This document shows positions 2,813-8,469 of a DNA stretch of 8,704 nucleotides, one piece after another. Each line of letters begins with the position of its first letter. Positions within the stretch are counted from its first letter, which is position 1. The notes under the pieces were generated by a model. It worked only from the letters and a program-made list of their open reading frames with translations, made no database searches and had not been told where the DNA came from. The translations under genes were made by a program, and so were the position numbers. Source of the stretch: a virus (Duplodnaviria; Heunggongvirae; Uroviricota; Caudoviricetes); the IMG/VR virus record IMGVR_UViG_2609460344_000011, positions 1 through 8,704 of that record. One strand, written 5' to 3'.

Positions 2813-3135
2813 CGACATTAACTCAATGCCAGCAGCAGGTGCTGGATATGCTGATTTCTTATCAGAAAGAACGTGGCTTCCCGCCAACCAATCAGGAGGT
2901 GGCAACCATGCTGGGATACCGTTCGGTGAATGCAGCGGTGGAGCATCTTCGCGCACTGGAGAAAAAAGGTGTCATCACGATAAAGCGTGGCGTGGCCCGG
3001 GGTATCACTCTTCATACCGCGGTGAAGGACGACGACAGCGAGGCGGTCGGGATTATCCGCGCCCTGCTTGCCGGTGAGGCAAACGCCAGGCTGCGTGCAG
3101 CCCACTGGTTACATGAGAGGGGCCTGAAAGTATGA
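2809..3135 (+). CDS. LexA N-terminal DNA-binding domain homologue lacking the S24 peptidase domain
   Basis: ATG 2809 overlaps the upstream stop (ATGA). Residues 1-68 align without gaps to the E. coli LexA N-terminal domain as recalled: LTxxQQxVxDxI ... GxPPTxxExAxxLGxRSxNAAxEHLxALxxKGVIxI ... RGIxL. The protein ends at 108 aa with no catalytic Ser/Lys domain. Confidence 0.75.
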   Translation: MTTLTQCQQQVLDMLISYQKERGFPPTNQEVATMLGYRSVNAAVEHLRALEKKGVITIKRGVARGITLHTAVKDDDSEAVGIIRALLAGEANARLRAAHWLHERGLKV

Positions 3136-3527
3136 AGCTAATACTGCCTTTTCCGCCCAGCGTGAACACGTACTGGCGACACCCCAACAAAGGGGCGTTT
3201 GCTGGTAAGAGCCTGATAAGCGCGGCGGGGCGAAAATTCCAGAGCGCGGCGTGTGCAGCAATAGTTGAGCAGTTACGTCGTCTGCCGAAACCAACGTCGG
3301 CACCTGCTTCAGTGGAGATCGTGTTGTTTCCTCCGGATAACCGGATCCGCGATCTGGACAACTATAACAAGGCGCTGTTTGACGCCCTGACCCACGCGGG
3401 TGTGTGGGAAGACGACAGTCAGGTGAAAAGAATGCTGGTGGAGTGGGGACCGGTTATCCCGGAGGGGAAGGTCGAGATCACTATCAGTAAGTACGAAAAA
3501 GCGAGTTGCAAATTAGCAACTCGGTAA
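3132..3527 (+). CDS. rusA: RusA-family Holliday junction resolvase (crossover junction endodeoxyribonuclease)
   Basis: ATG 3132 overlaps the upstream stop (ATGA), with GAGAGGGG upstream. N-terminal LILPFPPSVNTYWR and the acidic core DLDNYNKALFDALTHAGVWEDDSQV match RusA family signatures. Confidence 0.85.
   Translation: MKLILPFPPSVNTYWRHPNKGAFAGKSLISAAGRKFQSAACAAIVEQLRRLPKPTSAPASVEIVLFPPDNRIRDLDNYNKALFDALTHAGVWEDDSQVKRMLVEWGPVIPEGKVEITISKYEKASCKLATR
3502..3523. repeat. perfect 8-bp inverted repeat CGAGTTGC-N6-GCAACTCG at the 3' end of rusA
   Basis: CGAGTTGC (3502-3509) and GCAACTCG (3516-3523) are exact reverse complements. No U-tract follows, so it is more likely an operator or RNA stem than an intrinsic terminator. 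Confidence 0.35.
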
Positions 3528-3572
3528 CGGAATTGAGCAACACCCTAAATTTGGGTATTACCTCGTTAAAGA

Positions 3573-3592
3573 TACTGTATTTATGAACAGTG
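3573..3592. promoter_or_regulatory. LexA (SOS) box, consensus CTGT-N8-ACAG
   Basis: TACTGTATTTATGAACAGTG: CTGT at 3575-3578, an AT-rich 8-nt spacer, ACAG at 3587-3590. Candidate sigma70 elements TTGATA (3598-3603)-N17-TAAGTT (3621-3626) lie immediately downstream, before the KilA-N gene start at 3690. Confidence 0.7.
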
Positions 3593-3689
3593 TATCCTTG
3601 ATAACTATTAAAAATCGCAGTAAGTTCATCCTGCATCAACGAAAAGGGAGTGCAGTCCCGCTCGTGGATAAAAATTTGTGGAGAAACCA

Positions 3690-4505
3690 ATGAATCAGTT
3701 GCTTGTAATTGATGGCGTTTCTGTGCGTCAGTACTTCGAATCTAACTACTGTCTTAACGACCTTCAGAAAGCTGCTCTTCTTGCCGCTGGTGAGAATCGC
3801 TCCTCCCGTTCGCTGGAAGTTCACGAGTTTATGCGTCGTCCTGAAACGAAGGCTCTTGTGGAATTATTGGAAGAAGAAACTACGGGAGATTCCCGTAGTA
3901 TTCCTGTCATCACCATTCAGGGGCGCAATGGTGGGACGTATGTCTGTAAAGAGCTGGTCTATGCATATGCAATGTGGATCAGCCCGGCATTCAGCTTAAA
4001 AGTGATACGTACTTTTGATGCGCTTCATAATTCATCACCAGAAGAAACCACATCCGACAAAATTAAATCCGGGGTCATTCTGCTTGAATCAGCAGCAAAG
4101 ACTCTAAATCTGTCAAACTCCTCGAAACTTGGTGCATACCAGAAATTATCAAAGGTAGCTGGTCTTCCTGAACTTATGCCGATCTATGCCATTGATGCAC
4201 CTGCTGATGCGCCAGATGGTTCAAGCCGCCCTACGCTGTCGCTGAGTGCACTGCTGAAGCAGTATGGTATCCGCCTGACGGCTAATCAGGCATATCACCA
4301 GATGGCGAAGCTGGGGATCGTTGAACAACGCGAACGATACAGCCGTACCGCGATTAACAACATCAAAAAATTCTGGTCGCTGACCGCGAAAGGCTGCATG
4401 TTCGGCAAGAACATCACCAGTCCTGCAAATCCGCGCGAGACGCAGCCGCATTTCTTCGAATCCCGATTTCCTGAGCTGTTAAAGCTGCTCGATACCGTTC
4501 ATTGA
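3690..4505 (+). CDS. KilA-N domain protein, probable SOS-controlled antirepressor-like protein
   Basis: ATG 3690 with GGAG at 3680-3683. The N-terminal 110 aa (YCLNDLQKAALL ... IQGRNGGTYVCKELVYAYAMWISPAFSLKVIRTFDAL) fit the KilA-N domain pattern. Preceded by the LexA box. Confidence 0.7.
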   Translation: MNQLLVIDGVSVRQYFESNYCLNDLQKAALLAAGENRSSRSLEVHEFMRRPETKALVELLEEETTGDSRSIPVITIQGRNGGTYVCKELVYAYAMWISPAFSLKVIRTFDALHNSSPEETTSDKIKSGVILLESAAKTLNLSNSSKLGAYQKLSKVAGLPELMPIYAIDAPADAPDGSSRPTLSLSALLKQYGIRLTANQAYHQMAKLGIVEQRERYSRTAINNIKKFWSLTAKGCMFGKNITSPANPRETQPHFFESRFPELLKLLDTVH

Positions 4506-4506
4506 G

Positions 4507-5502
4507 GTGACTGTGAGAGCACTACTGACCCCTGAAATTGCCCCGCGTATGGGGATCGTATTGTTCAGGCCAGGTTCAGAGCTGATGCCCCTGTTTATGC
4601 AGGGGCGTGTCCTGCTGGAGCCTGAGCCGGAGCGTTATTCATCTTTCGCCAGTGGTGCCGTTCCGGCGGCATCACAACCGCTGGCGGATGATCCTGCCGT
4701 TCGGGCCGTGTTCCGCCATGAGGCAGTGATCCGTCGTGCTGGTGGCGTGGAATGTCTTGAAAGCTGGTTACTTCGTGAAAAAGGCTGCCAGTGGCCTCAT
4801 TCCGGATGGCACAGCGAGAACATGACCACAATGCGACACGCTCCGGGCGCAATCCGTCTGTGCTGGCACTGCGATAACCAGCTGCGCGATCAGTTCACGG
4901 AACGGCTGGAATCAATGGCAACGGATAACTGTGCCCGCTGGGTGTTGTCTGTTGTGCGTCGGGATCTCGGTTTTGATGACAGTCACGTTGTGACAATGCC
5001 GGAACTGTGCTGGTGGCTGATTCGTAATGACCTGGCGGATGCCTTACCGGAAAGTGCAGCCCGTAAGGCACTGAGATTACCGAAGCCTGTTGTGCCGTCT
5101 GTCACCCGGGAAAGTGACCTTGTGCCTTCGGTTCCTGCCACCAGCATCATCCAGGATAAAGCGAAAAAGGTGCTGGCGCTGAAAGTGGATCCGGAGTCGC
5201 CGGAGTCTTTTATGTTACGCCCCAAACGTCGCCGCTGGGTTAATGAAAAGTACACGCGCTGGGTTAAGACGCAGCCGTGTGCATGTTGTGGAAAGCCTGC
5301 TGATGATCCCCACCACCTGATAGGCCACGGTCAGGGGGGAATGGGTACAAAAGCGCATGACCTCTTCGTGCTGCCTTTGTGCAGAAAGCATCACGACGAG
5401 CTGCATGCGGATACCGTGGCATTTGAAGAGAAGTATGGCTCCCAGCTGGAGCTGATATTTCGTTTTATCGATCGTGCGCTGGCAATAGGCGTGCTGGCCT
5501 GA
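4507..5502 (+). CDS. DUF968-family protein with C-terminal HNH-like Cys/His motif
   Basis: C-terminal CACCGKPADDPHHLIGHGQGGMGTKAHDLFVLPLCRKHHDELH resembles the DUF968 family found next to Q in E. coli prophages. The start is uncertain: GTG 4507, GTG 4513 or ATG 4549, none with a strong SD. Confidence 0.6.
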   Translation: MTVRALLTPEIAPRMGIVLFRPGSELMPLFMQGRVLLEPEPERYSSFASGAVPAASQPLADDPAVRAVFRHEAVIRRAGGVECLESWLLREKGCQWPHSGWHSENMTTMRHAPGAIRLCWHCDNQLRDQFTERLESMATDNCARWVLSVVRRDLGFDDSHVVTMPELCWWLIRNDLADALPESAARKALRLPKPVVPSVTRESDLVPSVPATSIIQDKAKKVLALKVDPESPESFMLRPKRRRWVNEKYTRWVKTQPCACCGKPADDPHHLIGHGQGGMGTKAHDLFVLPLCRKHHDELHADTVAFEEKYGSQLELIFRFIDRALAIGVLA

Positions 5503-5519
5503 TTTTGTGGAGAAAGTTG

Positions 5520-5891
5520 ATGCGTGATATTCAAATGGTTCTTGAACGTTGGGGGGCATGGGTGGCAAATAATCACGAGGATGTGGAATGGTCATCTGTT
5601 GCTGCAGGTTTTAAGGGATTAATTCCTTCGAAAGTAAAATCCCGCCCGCAATGTAGCGATGACGATGGCCTGATCATTAGCTCTGCGATGACAGTTCTTA
5701 AGAAAAAGGAACCGTATCAATACGAATTACTGGAAATGTATTATGTGTATGGGGTTACATTACGGGTGTTGGGGGTAAAACTGGGGATATCACTTAATCA
5801 GGTTGTTATCAGACTGCAGAAAGCTGAAGGGTTTATTGACGGTTGTCTGGCAATGTTGGGGGTATCTTTAGAAATTGATTGTTACATATAG
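5520..5891 (+). CDS. Q-like late-gene antiterminator (small, about 123 aa, quuD-type)
   Basis: ATG 5520 with GGAGA at 5509-5513. The size, the position after rusA/DUF968 and before the tRNA cluster, and the N-terminal MRDIQMVLERWGAW match my recollection of small Q antiterminators of E. coli prophages. Family assignment is from memory, not a search. Confidence 0.55.
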   Translation: MRDIQMVLERWGAWVANNHEDVEWSSVAAGFKGLIPSKVKSRPQCSDDDGLIISSAMTVLKKKEPYQYELLEMYYVYGVTLRVLGVKLGISLNQVVIRLQKAEGFIDGCLAMLGVSLEIDCYI

Positions 5892-7194: not shown

Positions 7195-7908
7195 ATGGCT
7201 GTTGTCTGTTCAGTTATCATGGTTTGCTCCCCAATTAATATTTTTCTTGAAAAGGATACGTTGTCACTTAAGCCAGGCTCAGTTGTTCTGGCCACCAAAT
7301 GCATCAGGGAGCTTTTCCTTATGCATTATGGCAAAGTTAAAATTGTCGATATAAGCGAATCCGTCGTAAGTCAATATCTGGAAAGTCAGCATAAGCTGAC
7401 GAGGACTCGTCTGACTGACATTCCGCTTTACCTGTTGCTGGAACCCAACAATCCTGCGTTGGCTGCGGCTTTAATTACCAGCCAGGGATTTTCCGGAGAG
7501 GCCACGGATATGTTTCTTATGATGGCCTGCCTGTCTCTGTTTGAAACAGATGAACGGATGTCATTGTTTTTAAGTGGATGTTTATCCAGCATAAGTGCCA
7601 AAGTCAGGGCGATAATTCAGACAGATATATCAGCAAGCTGGACGCTTGGTGCGATTGCTCTACAGTTGCATATGAGTGAGAGTTTGTTAAAGACAAAACT
7701 GAAAAATGAAGGGGGCATGTTCAGTCGCTTGTTGCTGGAAGAGCGGATGCGTGTTGCTGTAAATATGTTATGTTCCCGGCATGGATATGGACAGGCTATA
7801 GCAGAAAAATGCGGTTATTCAAGCAGGTCCTACTTTATTTCTGTATTTCACCGCTATTATGGCTTCCCGCCAGACAGATATGTATCCAGGCAAGGGCTTG
7901 ATTATTGA
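7195..7908 (+). CDS. AraC-family transcriptional regulator (AppY/GadX/YdeO/Rns-like)
   Basis: C-terminal AraC-type HTH (WTLGAIALQLHMSESLLKTKLKNEGGMFSRLLLEERMRVAVNMLCSRHGYGQAIAEKCGYSSRSYFISVFHRYYGFPP). N-terminus MAVVCSVIMVC resembles the AppY-like subgroup as recalled. AT-rich, with 5 AGG, 1 AGA and 5 ATA codons by hand count. No clear SD; an alternative start is ATG 7219. Confidence 0.7.
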   Translation: MAVVCSVIMVCSPINIFLEKDTLSLKPGSVVLATKCIRELFLMHYGKVKIVDISESVVSQYLESQHKLTRTRLTDIPLYLLLEPNNPALAAALITSQGFSGEATDMFLMMACLSLFETDERMSLFLSGCLSSISAKVRAIIQTDISASWTLGAIALQLHMSESLLKTKLKNEGGMFSRLLLEERMRVAVNMLCSRHGYGQAIAEKCGYSSRSYFISVFHRYYGFPPDRYVSRQGLDY

Positions 7909-7936: not shown

Positions 7937-8012
7937 GGCCCTTTAGCTCAGTGGTGAGAGCGAGCGACTCATAATCGCCAGGTCGCTGGTTCAAATCCAG
8001 CAAGGGCCACCA
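7937..8012 (+). tRNA. tRNA with anticodon CAU, most likely tRNA-Ile2 (lysidine, reads AUA); generic annotation would be tRNA-Met
   Basis: Hand-folded cloverleaf: acceptor GGCCCTT/AAGGGCC, D-arm GCTC/GAGC, anticodon loop CTCATAA, T-arm GCTGG/CCAGC with TTCAAAT loop, encoded CCA. Close to E. coli ileX as recalled. Confidence 0.8.
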
Positions 8013-8019
8013 TCACATA

Positions 8020-8096
8020 CCGCCATTAGCTCATCAGGAAAGAGCGCCAGCCTTCGAAGCTGGCTGCGCGGGGTTCAAGTCCCCGATGGCGGTCCA
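8020..8096 (+). tRNA. tRNA-Arg, anticodon UCG (reads CGA/CGG)
   Basis: Acceptor CCGCCAT/ATGGCGG, D-arm GCTC/GAGC, anticodon stem CCAGC/GCTGG with loop CTTCGAA, T-arm CGGGG/CCCCG with TTCAAGT loop, encoded CCA. The C1-G72 first pair is unusual but the fold is complete. Confidence 0.75.
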
Positions 8097-8109
8097 TTAT
8101 CTGCATCAT

Positions 8110-8186
8110 GCGTTGTTAGCTCAGCCGGACAGAGCAATTGCCTTCTAAGCAATCGGTCACTGGTTCGAATCCAGTACAACGCGCCA
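8110..8186 (+). tRNA. tRNA-Arg, anticodon UCU (reads AGA/AGG), argU-like
   Basis: Acceptor GCGTTGT/ACAACGC, D-arm GCTC/GAGC, anticodon stem ATTGC/GCAAT with loop CTTCTAA, T-arm ACTGG/CCAGT with TTCGAAT loop, encoded CCA. Confidence 0.8.
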
Positions 8187-8227: not shown

Positions 8228-8439
8228 AAATGTCTCACAATTCAGGCGGTTGACTGTTGTCTGGTTTGCGGGGAGTTTGTTAAAAGAAACTGGCATGGTG
8301 AATCCCCCTGTGCGGAGGGGCAATCAGCAACTGGTGTTTTGTCACCGACCCTTATCCTTTCTGTGCGGGTTCAGGTGCTGATACTGAACTCACCGGGAGG
8401 CACCCGGCACCATGCAATGGCACATAGCGCCACTCTCCA

Positions 8440-8463
8440 GCCCCTCTCCGGAGGGGCTTTCTT
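8440..8463 (+). terminator. GC-rich hairpin with weak T-rich tail (possible attenuator or terminator)
   Basis: Stem GCCCCTC (8440-8446) / GAGGGGC (8451-8457), loop TCCG, followed by TTTCTT. Confidence 0.35.
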
Positions 8464-8469
8464 ATGGAC

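Follow-up and report, generated by a model that had tools for sequence, protein, structure and literature searches.

A predicted LexA-controlled promoter upstream of a KilA-N/DUF968 gene pair in the nin region of an Escherichia coli lambdoid prophage

The 8,704-bp stretch of virus DNA analyzed here (the window) is part of an Escherichia coli lambdoid prophage, of which it covers the early-right (nin) region and the beginning of the late region. Across positions 3400-5600 the sequence shares 100% identity with a prophage that occupies the mlrA site in E. coli strain TOE17, and 98% with both Shigella phage SfIV and Escherichia phage PhiR49_1. The element in question is the spacer between rusA and kilA-N, which contains a LexA box and a predicted promoter, together with the two genes downstream of it, encoding a KilA-N protein and a DUF968 protein. 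The gene order (Table 1) was read from Pfam matches and from the RefSeq annotation of the identical prophage. The original prediction for this locus described it as a candidate LexA-gated antirepressor module. The gating half of this description is supported by the sequence: the operator has consensus quality and occupies the operon's sole large gap, the best promoter-like site adjoins it, and similar palindromes recur at this place in other genera. The antirepressor half is not supported.

The LexA box reported in the original prediction is present. It reads CTGTATTTATGAACAG at positions 3575-3590 and is contained in the 20-mer TACTGTATTTATGAACAGTG at 3573-3592, which agrees with the consensus TACTGTATATATATACAGTA at 16 of 20 positions and has both CTGT arms intact. 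With a CTGT-N8-ACAG core in an AT-rich 20-mer, the site has the sequence of an E. coli LexA regulon operator. The core is the only one among the 8,704 bases of the window. The pattern alone is not rare, as 0.10 occurrences are expected by shuffling and 19 of 200 shuffles contained at least one. The complete 20-mer scores 21.4 bits, in the upper half of the 28 training boxes (12.6-26.6 bits); the position matrix was derived from 28 E. coli boxes known from the literature, and the bit scores are approximate. None of 2.6 million positions in shuffled windows reached 21 bits. The heterology index, calculated with a home-made index, is about 5.6. The SfIV version, TACTGTATTTATGAACAGTA, ends in A and is stronger (23.1 bits). 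The box lies upstream of kilA-N as had been stated, but its start is 117 nucleotides (nt) from the ATG rather than 100.

A candidate promoter next to the box had also been proposed, and a site is indeed found there, best placed as TTGATA-17-TAAGTT (Table 1). It has the top sigma-70-like score of the window, first among 17,338 positions on both strands, although the simple matrix made for this purpose is approximate. The candidate -35 hexamer begins 5 nt 3' of the box. Transcription is predicted to start at about 3633, which positions the box at about -60 to -41, adjoining rather than overlapping the core promoter. The same layout (box, 5 nt, -35, 17 nt, -10) is found in Klebsiella phage Kp4866-6 and in a Raoultella prophage, and relatives from Kluyvera and Leclercia retain the promoter hexamers. 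A second layout, in which the -10 hexamer lies within the palindrome, occurs in Erwinia, Serratia and Rahnella relatives (e.g. TTGCCA-17-TATATT in Erwinia). A -10 hexamer inside the palindrome is the classical SOS arrangement.

Table 1. Genes and other features of the window, in order of position
Feature	Position	Strand	Remarks
Rha/Ash regulator gene, 3' part	30-632
Replication-type helix-turn-helix (HTH) protein	811-1668
PerC/YfdN	1665-2159
Dam-type methylase	2126-2812
LexA DNA-binding-domain-only protein, 108 amino acids	2809-3135	+	Pfam LexA_DNA_bind, E = 2.9e-19
rusA, Holliday-junction resolvase	3132-3527	+	Pfam RusA, E = 6.4e-15; RefSeq annotation of identical prophage
Stable hairpin, rusA 3' end	3502-3523	+	-13.5 kcal/mol, z = -4.2
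rusA/kilA-N spacer			162 bp; sole large intergenic gap of the operon
Predicted sigma-70 promoter	3598-3626	+	-35 TTGATA 3598-3603, 17-nt spacer, -10 TAAGTT 3621-3626
5'-leader hairpin	3635-3669	+	Core GGGA-GUGCAG-UCCC 3646-3659
KilA-N protein gene, 271 amino acids	3690-4505	+	KilA-N (APSES-type) DNA-binding domain, helical linker, uncharacterised C-terminal domain
DUF968 protein gene, 329 amino acids	4513-5502	+	C-terminal His-Me-finger (HNH) nuclease domain
Antiterminator Q	5520-5891	+	Pfam Phage_antitermQ, E = 1.3e-47; 17 nt 3' of DUF968
Two unknown open reading frames, AraC-family regulator, three tRNAs, STnc100 small RNA	after Q

The box-bearing spacer is one allele, of the SfIV type. In the phage collection this allele was found only in SfIV, in a near-identical Shigella record and in PhiR49_1. 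Of 5,426 complete E. coli genomes, 185 carry it, nearly always in identical form. The carriers include the O104:H4 strain C227-11 and the O157:H7 strain FRIK944. Comparison of the alleles reveals a divergent block (about 50% identity), which extends from the last rusA codons through the N-terminal domain of the KilA-N protein and has flanks of 82-99% identity. Further downstream, the identity between alleles is about 83% in the C-terminal domain of the KilA-N protein and 97-99% in the DUF968 protein. A divergent block between such well-matching flanks points to mosaic replacement.

Palindromes of the LexA type recur at this place in other genera. Where the gap in front of kilA-N is at least 40 nt, 9 of 26 non-redundant relatives have a LexA-like palindrome that beats same-gap shuffles (p < 0.05); Fisher's combined p over the long-gap relatives is 4e-7, calculated for loci that are related and so not independent. 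Examples are GGCTGTTTTAATATCCAGTA in Edwardsiella (19 bits), GATTGTATATTTATACAGTC in Erwinia (16 bits) and the palindromes of Yersinia YeP3 and Serratia (15 bits each). In three further relatives a LexA-like palindrome overlaps the rusA stop codon. The LexA-type palindrome is read as a recurrent, though not universal, companion of those kilA-N genes that have their own upstream region, and by score it is the E. coli/Shigella allele that bears its strongest version.

Two RNA hairpins flank the box and promoter. The one in the predicted 5' leader has a conserved (G/U)UGCAG loop and variable stems. It is found 30-86 nt 5' of the kilA-N start at 23 distinct loci from about a dozen Enterobacterales genera, including phages with a short gap, in which it falls within the last rusA codons. 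Explicit pair counting across the loci gave 21 cells changed on both sides, and none of 500 shuffles reached the observed covariation score. RNAalifold, applied to the hairpin sequences aligned without gaps, returned no consensus structure, since the loop is not in the same register at all loci. An Rfam search of the whole window at E <= 1 yielded no family for the hairpin and returned only the three tRNAs and STnc100. The hairpin is not significantly repeated in the prophage: counting stems of 4 bp or more, there are three copies, and about 1.4 would be expected. The second hairpin, at the 3' end of rusA, is more stable than any of 200 shuffles. It has no U-tract on the + strand; a T-run and a terminator-like listing exist on the minus strand only. 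This may be a transcript-end or insulating structure, and it resembles the palindromes that precede the Gifsy LexA boxes. A minus-strand promoter driving a leftward small RNA that ends at this hairpin was considered and rejected, the best site being weak (8.5 versus 11.8).

Both genes downstream of the spacer are real, as had been proposed. The product of the first belongs to the KilA-N family (PF04383), with a significant profile match over residues 10-114 (E = 1.3e-15) and an APSES-type fold. In a model calculated from a 33-sequence alignment (mean predicted local distance difference test score, pLDDT, of 76), a helical linker comes after the DNA-binding domain, then a disordered stretch and finally an alpha/beta domain at the C terminus (residues 180-271). 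Residues 115-271 contain no ANT/KilAC or other Pfam domain, even at E <= 1, and the protein has no NCBIfam family. Fold searches gave KilA-N/APSES matches only, with no informative match for the C-terminal domain, and a sequence search of solved structures returned nothing for either the KilA-N or the DUF968 protein. The C-terminal domain is also found fused to Bro-N and Rha-type N-terminal domains in other phages, and this domain-shuffled family is the source of the generic 'antirepressor' labels. P1 KilA has a similar KilA-N domain (37% identity over about 105 residues). However, it ends in an ANT/KilAC domain, which is the basis of the 'antirepressor' label, whereas the C-terminal domain of the window protein is different. 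A role in a defence system was also considered and dropped: PADLOC gave a weak, partial match of the KilA-N protein to the candidate family PDC-S22 and none for DUF968.

The second gene encodes a member of the DUF968 family (PF06147; E = 1.9e-81, 272.6 bits compared to a cut-off of 27.8) with an additional borderline match to HNHc_6. The protein keeps the family's zinc-binding cysteines and catalytic histidine motif, in the form of the CxxC...HH...CxxHH motifs (...CACCGKPADDPHHLIGHG...CRKHHDELH), and belongs to PHROG 96, 'HNH endonuclease'. Its role, called unknown in the original prediction, is not wholly so. DUF968 is placed, together with YbcO and YdfU, in group 7 of the His-Me-finger nucleases (PMC5714182); it is predicted to act in recombination and is linked to RusA, Erf and Rad52 (PMC5714182, PMC4118853). 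The two genes do follow each other closely, but the spacing of 1 nt given earlier needs correction. DUF968 most likely starts at the GTG at 4513 and not at 4507, which leaves 7 nt between the genes. This is the start used in RefSeq and in all relatives, and its GAGG Shine-Dalgarno sequence overlaps the kilA-N stop codon. DUF968 is probably translationally coupled to kilA-N.

In most full-length relatives, which come from about fifteen genera, DUF968 begins 1-30 nt after kilA-N, and the next gene usually encodes an antiterminator, which can belong to any of several families. The order rusA, kilA-N, DUF968, Q is found in most of the full-length relatives from Escherichia, Salmonella, Klebsiella, Citrobacter, Pantoea, Serratia, Proteus, Morganella, Erwinia and Yersinia. 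The adjacency of kilA-N and DUF968 in most relatives indicates that the pair behaves as a functional unit of the nin region. In lambda the same place is held by rap (ninG) and ninH. Like these, and like ybcO of DLP12 and ydfU of Qin, the pair lies in the stretch from the recombination genes to Q, and DUF968/YdfU and YbcO are His-Me-finger nucleases, as is the NinG/Rap class. The lambda nin-type genes are normally expressed as delayed-early genes from PR. The versions in lambda and in the cryptic prophages of K-12 are not known to have a LexA box or a paired KilA-N gene. No convincing terminator was found between DUF968 and Q (5425-5520), where the fold z-scores are -0.96 and +0.31 and a consensus scan gave only weak candidates. 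Q is therefore probably on the kilA-N/DUF968 transcript.

These findings suggest the following scheme. In an undamaged lysogen, host LexA bound at 3573-3592 would hold the internal promoter shut, either by contacting the -35 region or by blocking upstream contacts of the RNA polymerase. On DNA damage, LexA would be cleaved, and transcripts with the leader hairpin would start at about 3633 independently of the CI/PR cascade. They would encode the KilA-N and DUF968 proteins and probably also Q, as no terminator intervenes. Beside RusA, the pair would add a DNA-binding protein and a His-Me-finger nuclease to the recombination and DNA-processing functions of the nin region. The box and its quality, the place and rank of the promoter-like site, the gene identities, the synteny and the distribution of the allele are seen directly in the sequences, whereas LexA binding in vivo, activity of the promoter, its start site, read-through into Q and the biochemical role of the pair are all inferred from them. 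LexA gating of a nin-region promoter is well supported by sequence and is a good, testable prediction, and such a promoter probably exists. The fuller proposition, that it is LexA-gated and drives a DNA-processing pair, not an antirepressor, and probably Q as well, appears about as apt to be wrong as to be right.

Several observations weigh against this scheme. In most relatives kilA-N follows rusA by 16-21 nt and has neither box nor promoter. Such short-gap loci are found in Ayreon, mEp460, cdtI-type phages, SfII, SfV, the Shiga toxin (Stx) phages of types Stx2a and Stx2c, Salmonella phage 118970_sal3, Morganella and Proteus. It follows that the core job of the gene pair is independent of LexA. 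In the closest relatives outside E. coli (Citrobacter farmeri, Kluyvera georgiana, Cedecea and Kosakonia) the palindromes score just 1-9 bits, with a right arm that mostly still reads ACAGTG and a left arm of GTGT, TTGT or ATGT. The strong box is thus lineage-specific and could be recent. It is positioned upstream of the -35 hexamer and not over the -10 or the start site, which is less common for repression. A stricter consensus promoter scan did not list TTGATA-17-TAAGTT, because its -10 matches at only 3 of 6 positions. Finally, SOS-driven expression of Q from an uninduced prophage would risk premature lysis. Because Q made before replication would be harmful, either read-through would be limited by Rho or by translation, or a tight box would delay firing of the promoter.

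The spacer box is not the only LexA box of this prophage family. The cI gene of the TOE17 prophage contains a 24.5-bit box, TACTGTATGTAAAAACAGTA (coding strand), at nt 210-229 in the linker codons, 1.6 kb to the left of the window start (14955-14974 of the TOE17 segment). A box of 21.9-26.0 bits occupies the identical position (610-629 of the comparison segments) in six repressors of 68-100% identity: those of the mEp460 type and of SfII, ST64B, Klebsiella phage 1 LV-2017, Citrobacter phiNP and Flotzy. The flanking linker codons have diverged freely. A promoter-like arrangement on the sense strand, TTTAC(C/A)-17-TACTGT, is kept in all six genes. Literature searches found no description of LexA boxes inside repressor genes. 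Salmonella phage 118970_sal3 has one of these cI-internal boxes, and as no LexA-domain gene is seen in the nin segment fetched from it, host LexA is indicated as the binder. A third box, TACTGTAAAAATATCCAGTT (24.2 bits), was observed in the prophage of O104:H4 C227-11, at the annotated start of a DNA methyltransferase gene (10436-10455) located between Q and the tRNA genes; this prophage also has the kilA-N and cI-internal boxes. Judged from the boxes and from the LexA-domain gene described next, direct LexA wiring of the family seems to be extensive.

The protein encoded two genes upstream of kilA-N is a truncated phage homolog of LexA, with the LexA winged helix but no S24 protease domain. 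Its identity to residues 1-87 of E. coli LexA is 43%, and the Pfam match spans residues 1-65 of the phage protein. The recognition helix is nearly unchanged (S39, N41, A42 and E45 are kept), and the RG wing and the 'AGE' cleavage-site motif are retained. The best match among solved structures is the LexA DNA-binding domain 1lea (E = 6e-16). Lacking a protease domain, the protein cannot cleave itself, and, by analogy, it could possibly act as an uncleavable LexA mimic and as a second binder of the box. The closest precedent is gp6 of the Bacillus tectivirus GIL01, a truncated LexA homolog that is 44% identical to host LexA and activates a late promoter from -43.5 (PMC6182141). As at the GIL01 promoter P3, a phage protein made up solely of LexA's DNA-binding domain (about 44% identical) is accompanied by host LexA boxes at a promoter for late functions; unlike the present prophage, GIL01 has no CI and its gp6 palindrome differs from the LexA box (PMC6182141).

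The box might accordingly be mainly an operator for this 108-residue protein, which would either activate the promoter from about -50 or, once host LexA is gone, re-close it together with the host SOS genes. A relay from LexA to a LexA mimic would then time the expression of kilA-N, DUF968 and Q. The nearly intact recognition helix and wing, the missing protease domain, the box centre at about -50, which suits an activator, and the GIL01 gp6 precedent (PMC6182141) are all consistent with this role. The gene, however, is conserved two genes 5' of kilA-N in many Enterobacteriaceae phages with or without a box, among them the short-gap phages mEp460, SfII, SfV and Ayreon. Moreover, the fetched flanks (about 1.5-2.5 kb) of the Yersinia, Serratia and Erwinia palindromes show no such gene, and the cI-internal box of 118970_sal3 is likewise found in a phage whose fetched nin segment is without it. 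We regard this alternative as unlikely, although it fares best among those considered here. A wider version is quite unlikely. According to it, host LexA would shut both the kilA-N/DUF968/Q promoter and the cI-internal operator, and the phage LexA-domain protein would later take over these sites and the host SOS boxes. If that were the case, a relay from LexA to a LexA mimic, similar to that of GIL01 gp6, would time the late switch and silence the host damage response in lambdoid coliphages, including the prophages of O104:H4 and O157:H7.

Another possibility is that the relevant output of the promoter is Q itself. Expression of the antiterminator would then be controlled by LexA and independent of N, and it would speed up or license lysis after severe damage. 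The short distance from DUF968 to Q with no convincing terminator is in keeping with this, as is the presence, in most relatives, of a Q-type gene behind the pair, whichever Q family it belongs to. The antQ transcript of Gifsy-1 has its start 1.6 kb upstream of the gene (PMC4825925); the corresponding distance in the window is similar, at 1.9 kb. Against it, the short-gap relatives manage without such a promoter, and Rho-dependent termination or poor translation of Q is possible. LexA is cleaved faster than CI-type repressors, and for this reason Q would precede replication and the head genes, which would be harmful. That Q is the main purpose of the promoter seems rather unlikely.

The antirepressor function that had been proposed for the KilA-N protein corresponds to an arrangement known from the Gifsy prophages: LexA would repress an antirepressor gene, and the KilA-N protein would bind and inactivate the repressor as the main or an auxiliary route of induction. 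In the dinI-antirepressor operons of the Salmonella prophages Gifsy-1, 2 and 3 (gfoA, gfhA, gftA), too, an internal promoter located between the replication genes and Q is under the control of a LexA box (PMC3121763). A palindrome precedes the box in both, and SOS induction of phage genes independent of the immunity repressor, as in Gifsy, is predicted here. The parallel is favored by the strength of the box, by its place 3' of the replication genes in the nin region, which resembles that of the Gifsy box (PMC3121763), and by the fact that some KilA-N, Bro-N and Rha fusions sharing the C-terminal domain carry an antirepressor annotation in phage records. The cargo is different, however. The Gifsy operons encode a DinI homolog followed by a small antirepressor that is not a KilA-N protein (PMC3121763), and not a KilA-N protein, a His-Me-finger nuclease and probably Q. 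Pfam, NCBIfam and fold searches detected no homology of the KilA-N product to Tum, AntC, GfoA/GftA or the ANT domain of P1/P22 Ant. In 186, N15 and Fels-2, a prophage promoter that lies outside the immunity region is under direct repression by host LexA, as is predicted for the window, but the genes concerned (tum, antC and tum, respectively) encode dedicated small antirepressors of demonstrated activity and unrelated sequence.

The immunity repressors also argue against this function. The matching prophage encodes a 230-residue CI-type repressor that combines an HTH domain with a Peptidase_S24 domain (E = 5.8e-19) and has, in addition, an Ala-Gly site and the catalytic motifs GDSM and VKRL. 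By sequence, it is of the classical RecA-stimulated, self-cleaving type with a complete S24 apparatus, whereas the Gifsy repressors are not cleaved. A non-self-cleaving immunity repressor, which an antirepressor module would require, is thus not what was found. In SfIV and PhiR49_1 this box and this kilA-N allele go together with another repressor, which is read as S24-type from the 'UmuD-like' annotation in SfIV and its GDSM motif. Conversely, the mEp460-type repressor is paired with the other N-terminal-domain allele in mEp460, SfII and Stx2a_WGPS2. One kilA-N allele therefore occurs with two immunity types, and one immunity type with two N-terminal-domain alleles that are about 50% identical. 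With repressors of the self-cleaving kind, and with a kilA-N allele that is not tied to immunity, the antirepressor reading lacks support. The missing ANT/KilAC domain, the strict coupling of kilA-N to a nuclease gene and the boxless state of most homologs, which are plain PR-operon genes, point the same way. P22 Ant is also made during lytic growth, but nothing found points to antirepressor activity of the KilA-N protein, and we consider a Gifsy-style function improbable.

Least probable of all is that the box is a by-product of mosaic recombination, its spacer having arrived with the alternative N-terminal-domain allele and the pair being transcribed from PR only, as in relatives: the divergent segment within well-matching flanks is typical of phage mosaicism, the nearest relatives in other genera have degenerate palindromes and the -10 hexamer is weak, but a 21-bit box is very unlikely by chance, it falls together with the window's top promoter-like site, it is unchanged or improved in SfIV and the 185 genomes, and independent boxes occupy the same relative place in Edwardsiella, Erwinia, Yersinia and Serratia.

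In the usual scheme of lambdoid induction, CI cleaves itself and a fixed cascade of PR, N and Q follows. If the LexA-gated promoter predicted here exists, it would be a second, CI-independent input that switches on a DNA-binding protein, a nuclease and possibly Q immediately upon the fall of LexA. The same module is present in prophages of strains of clinical importance, such as O104:H4 C227-11 and O157:H7 FRIK944, and in serotype-converting Shigella phages. Lysis is under the control of Q in related phages, as is the release of toxin in Stx phages. LexA-controlled internal prophage promoters are already known from the Gifsy dinI-antirepressor operons and from phages 186 and N15 (PMC3121763), but the KilA-N/DUF968 cargo is unstudied. 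Literature searches combining DUF968 or KilA-N with LexA or antirepressor found no prior description. Selective triggering of its expression would give a handle on this widespread pair. Taken with the cI-internal box and the LexA-domain gene, the promoter suggests that direct LexA wiring of lambdoid prophages is wider than has been recognised.

A few other features of the window and of the matching prophage were observed. The string TTTGTGGAGAAA(CCAA) stands ahead of the start codons of both kilA-N and Q (3671-3689 and 5505-5519). It occurs again in the TOE17 prophage (about 13800-13830, minus strand), where it lies just upstream of a UUGCAG hairpin in front of yfdP in the leftward operon. This recurrence may be just a common strong ribosome-binding context. 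The AraC-family regulator gene (7195-7908) is located between Q and the tRNA genes, and its product resembles YdeO and GadX (NCBIfam E = 4e-31, below the cut-off). It may belong to the prophage-borne regulators of acid resistance or virulence genes known from enterohaemorrhagic E. coli. Inside this gene there is a LexA-like site, AAGTGGATGTTTATCCAGCA (7572-7591), with a core of GTG-N10-CAG and a score of 16 bits; about 0.02 sites of at least 15 bits are expected per window. The three tRNA genes (Ile, Arg and Arg in the identical prophage) and the STnc100 small RNA lie at 7937-8183 and 8264-8469. The STnc100 match is full-length (143 bits) and is positioned downstream of the tRNAs and, in the matching genome, upstream of iraM.

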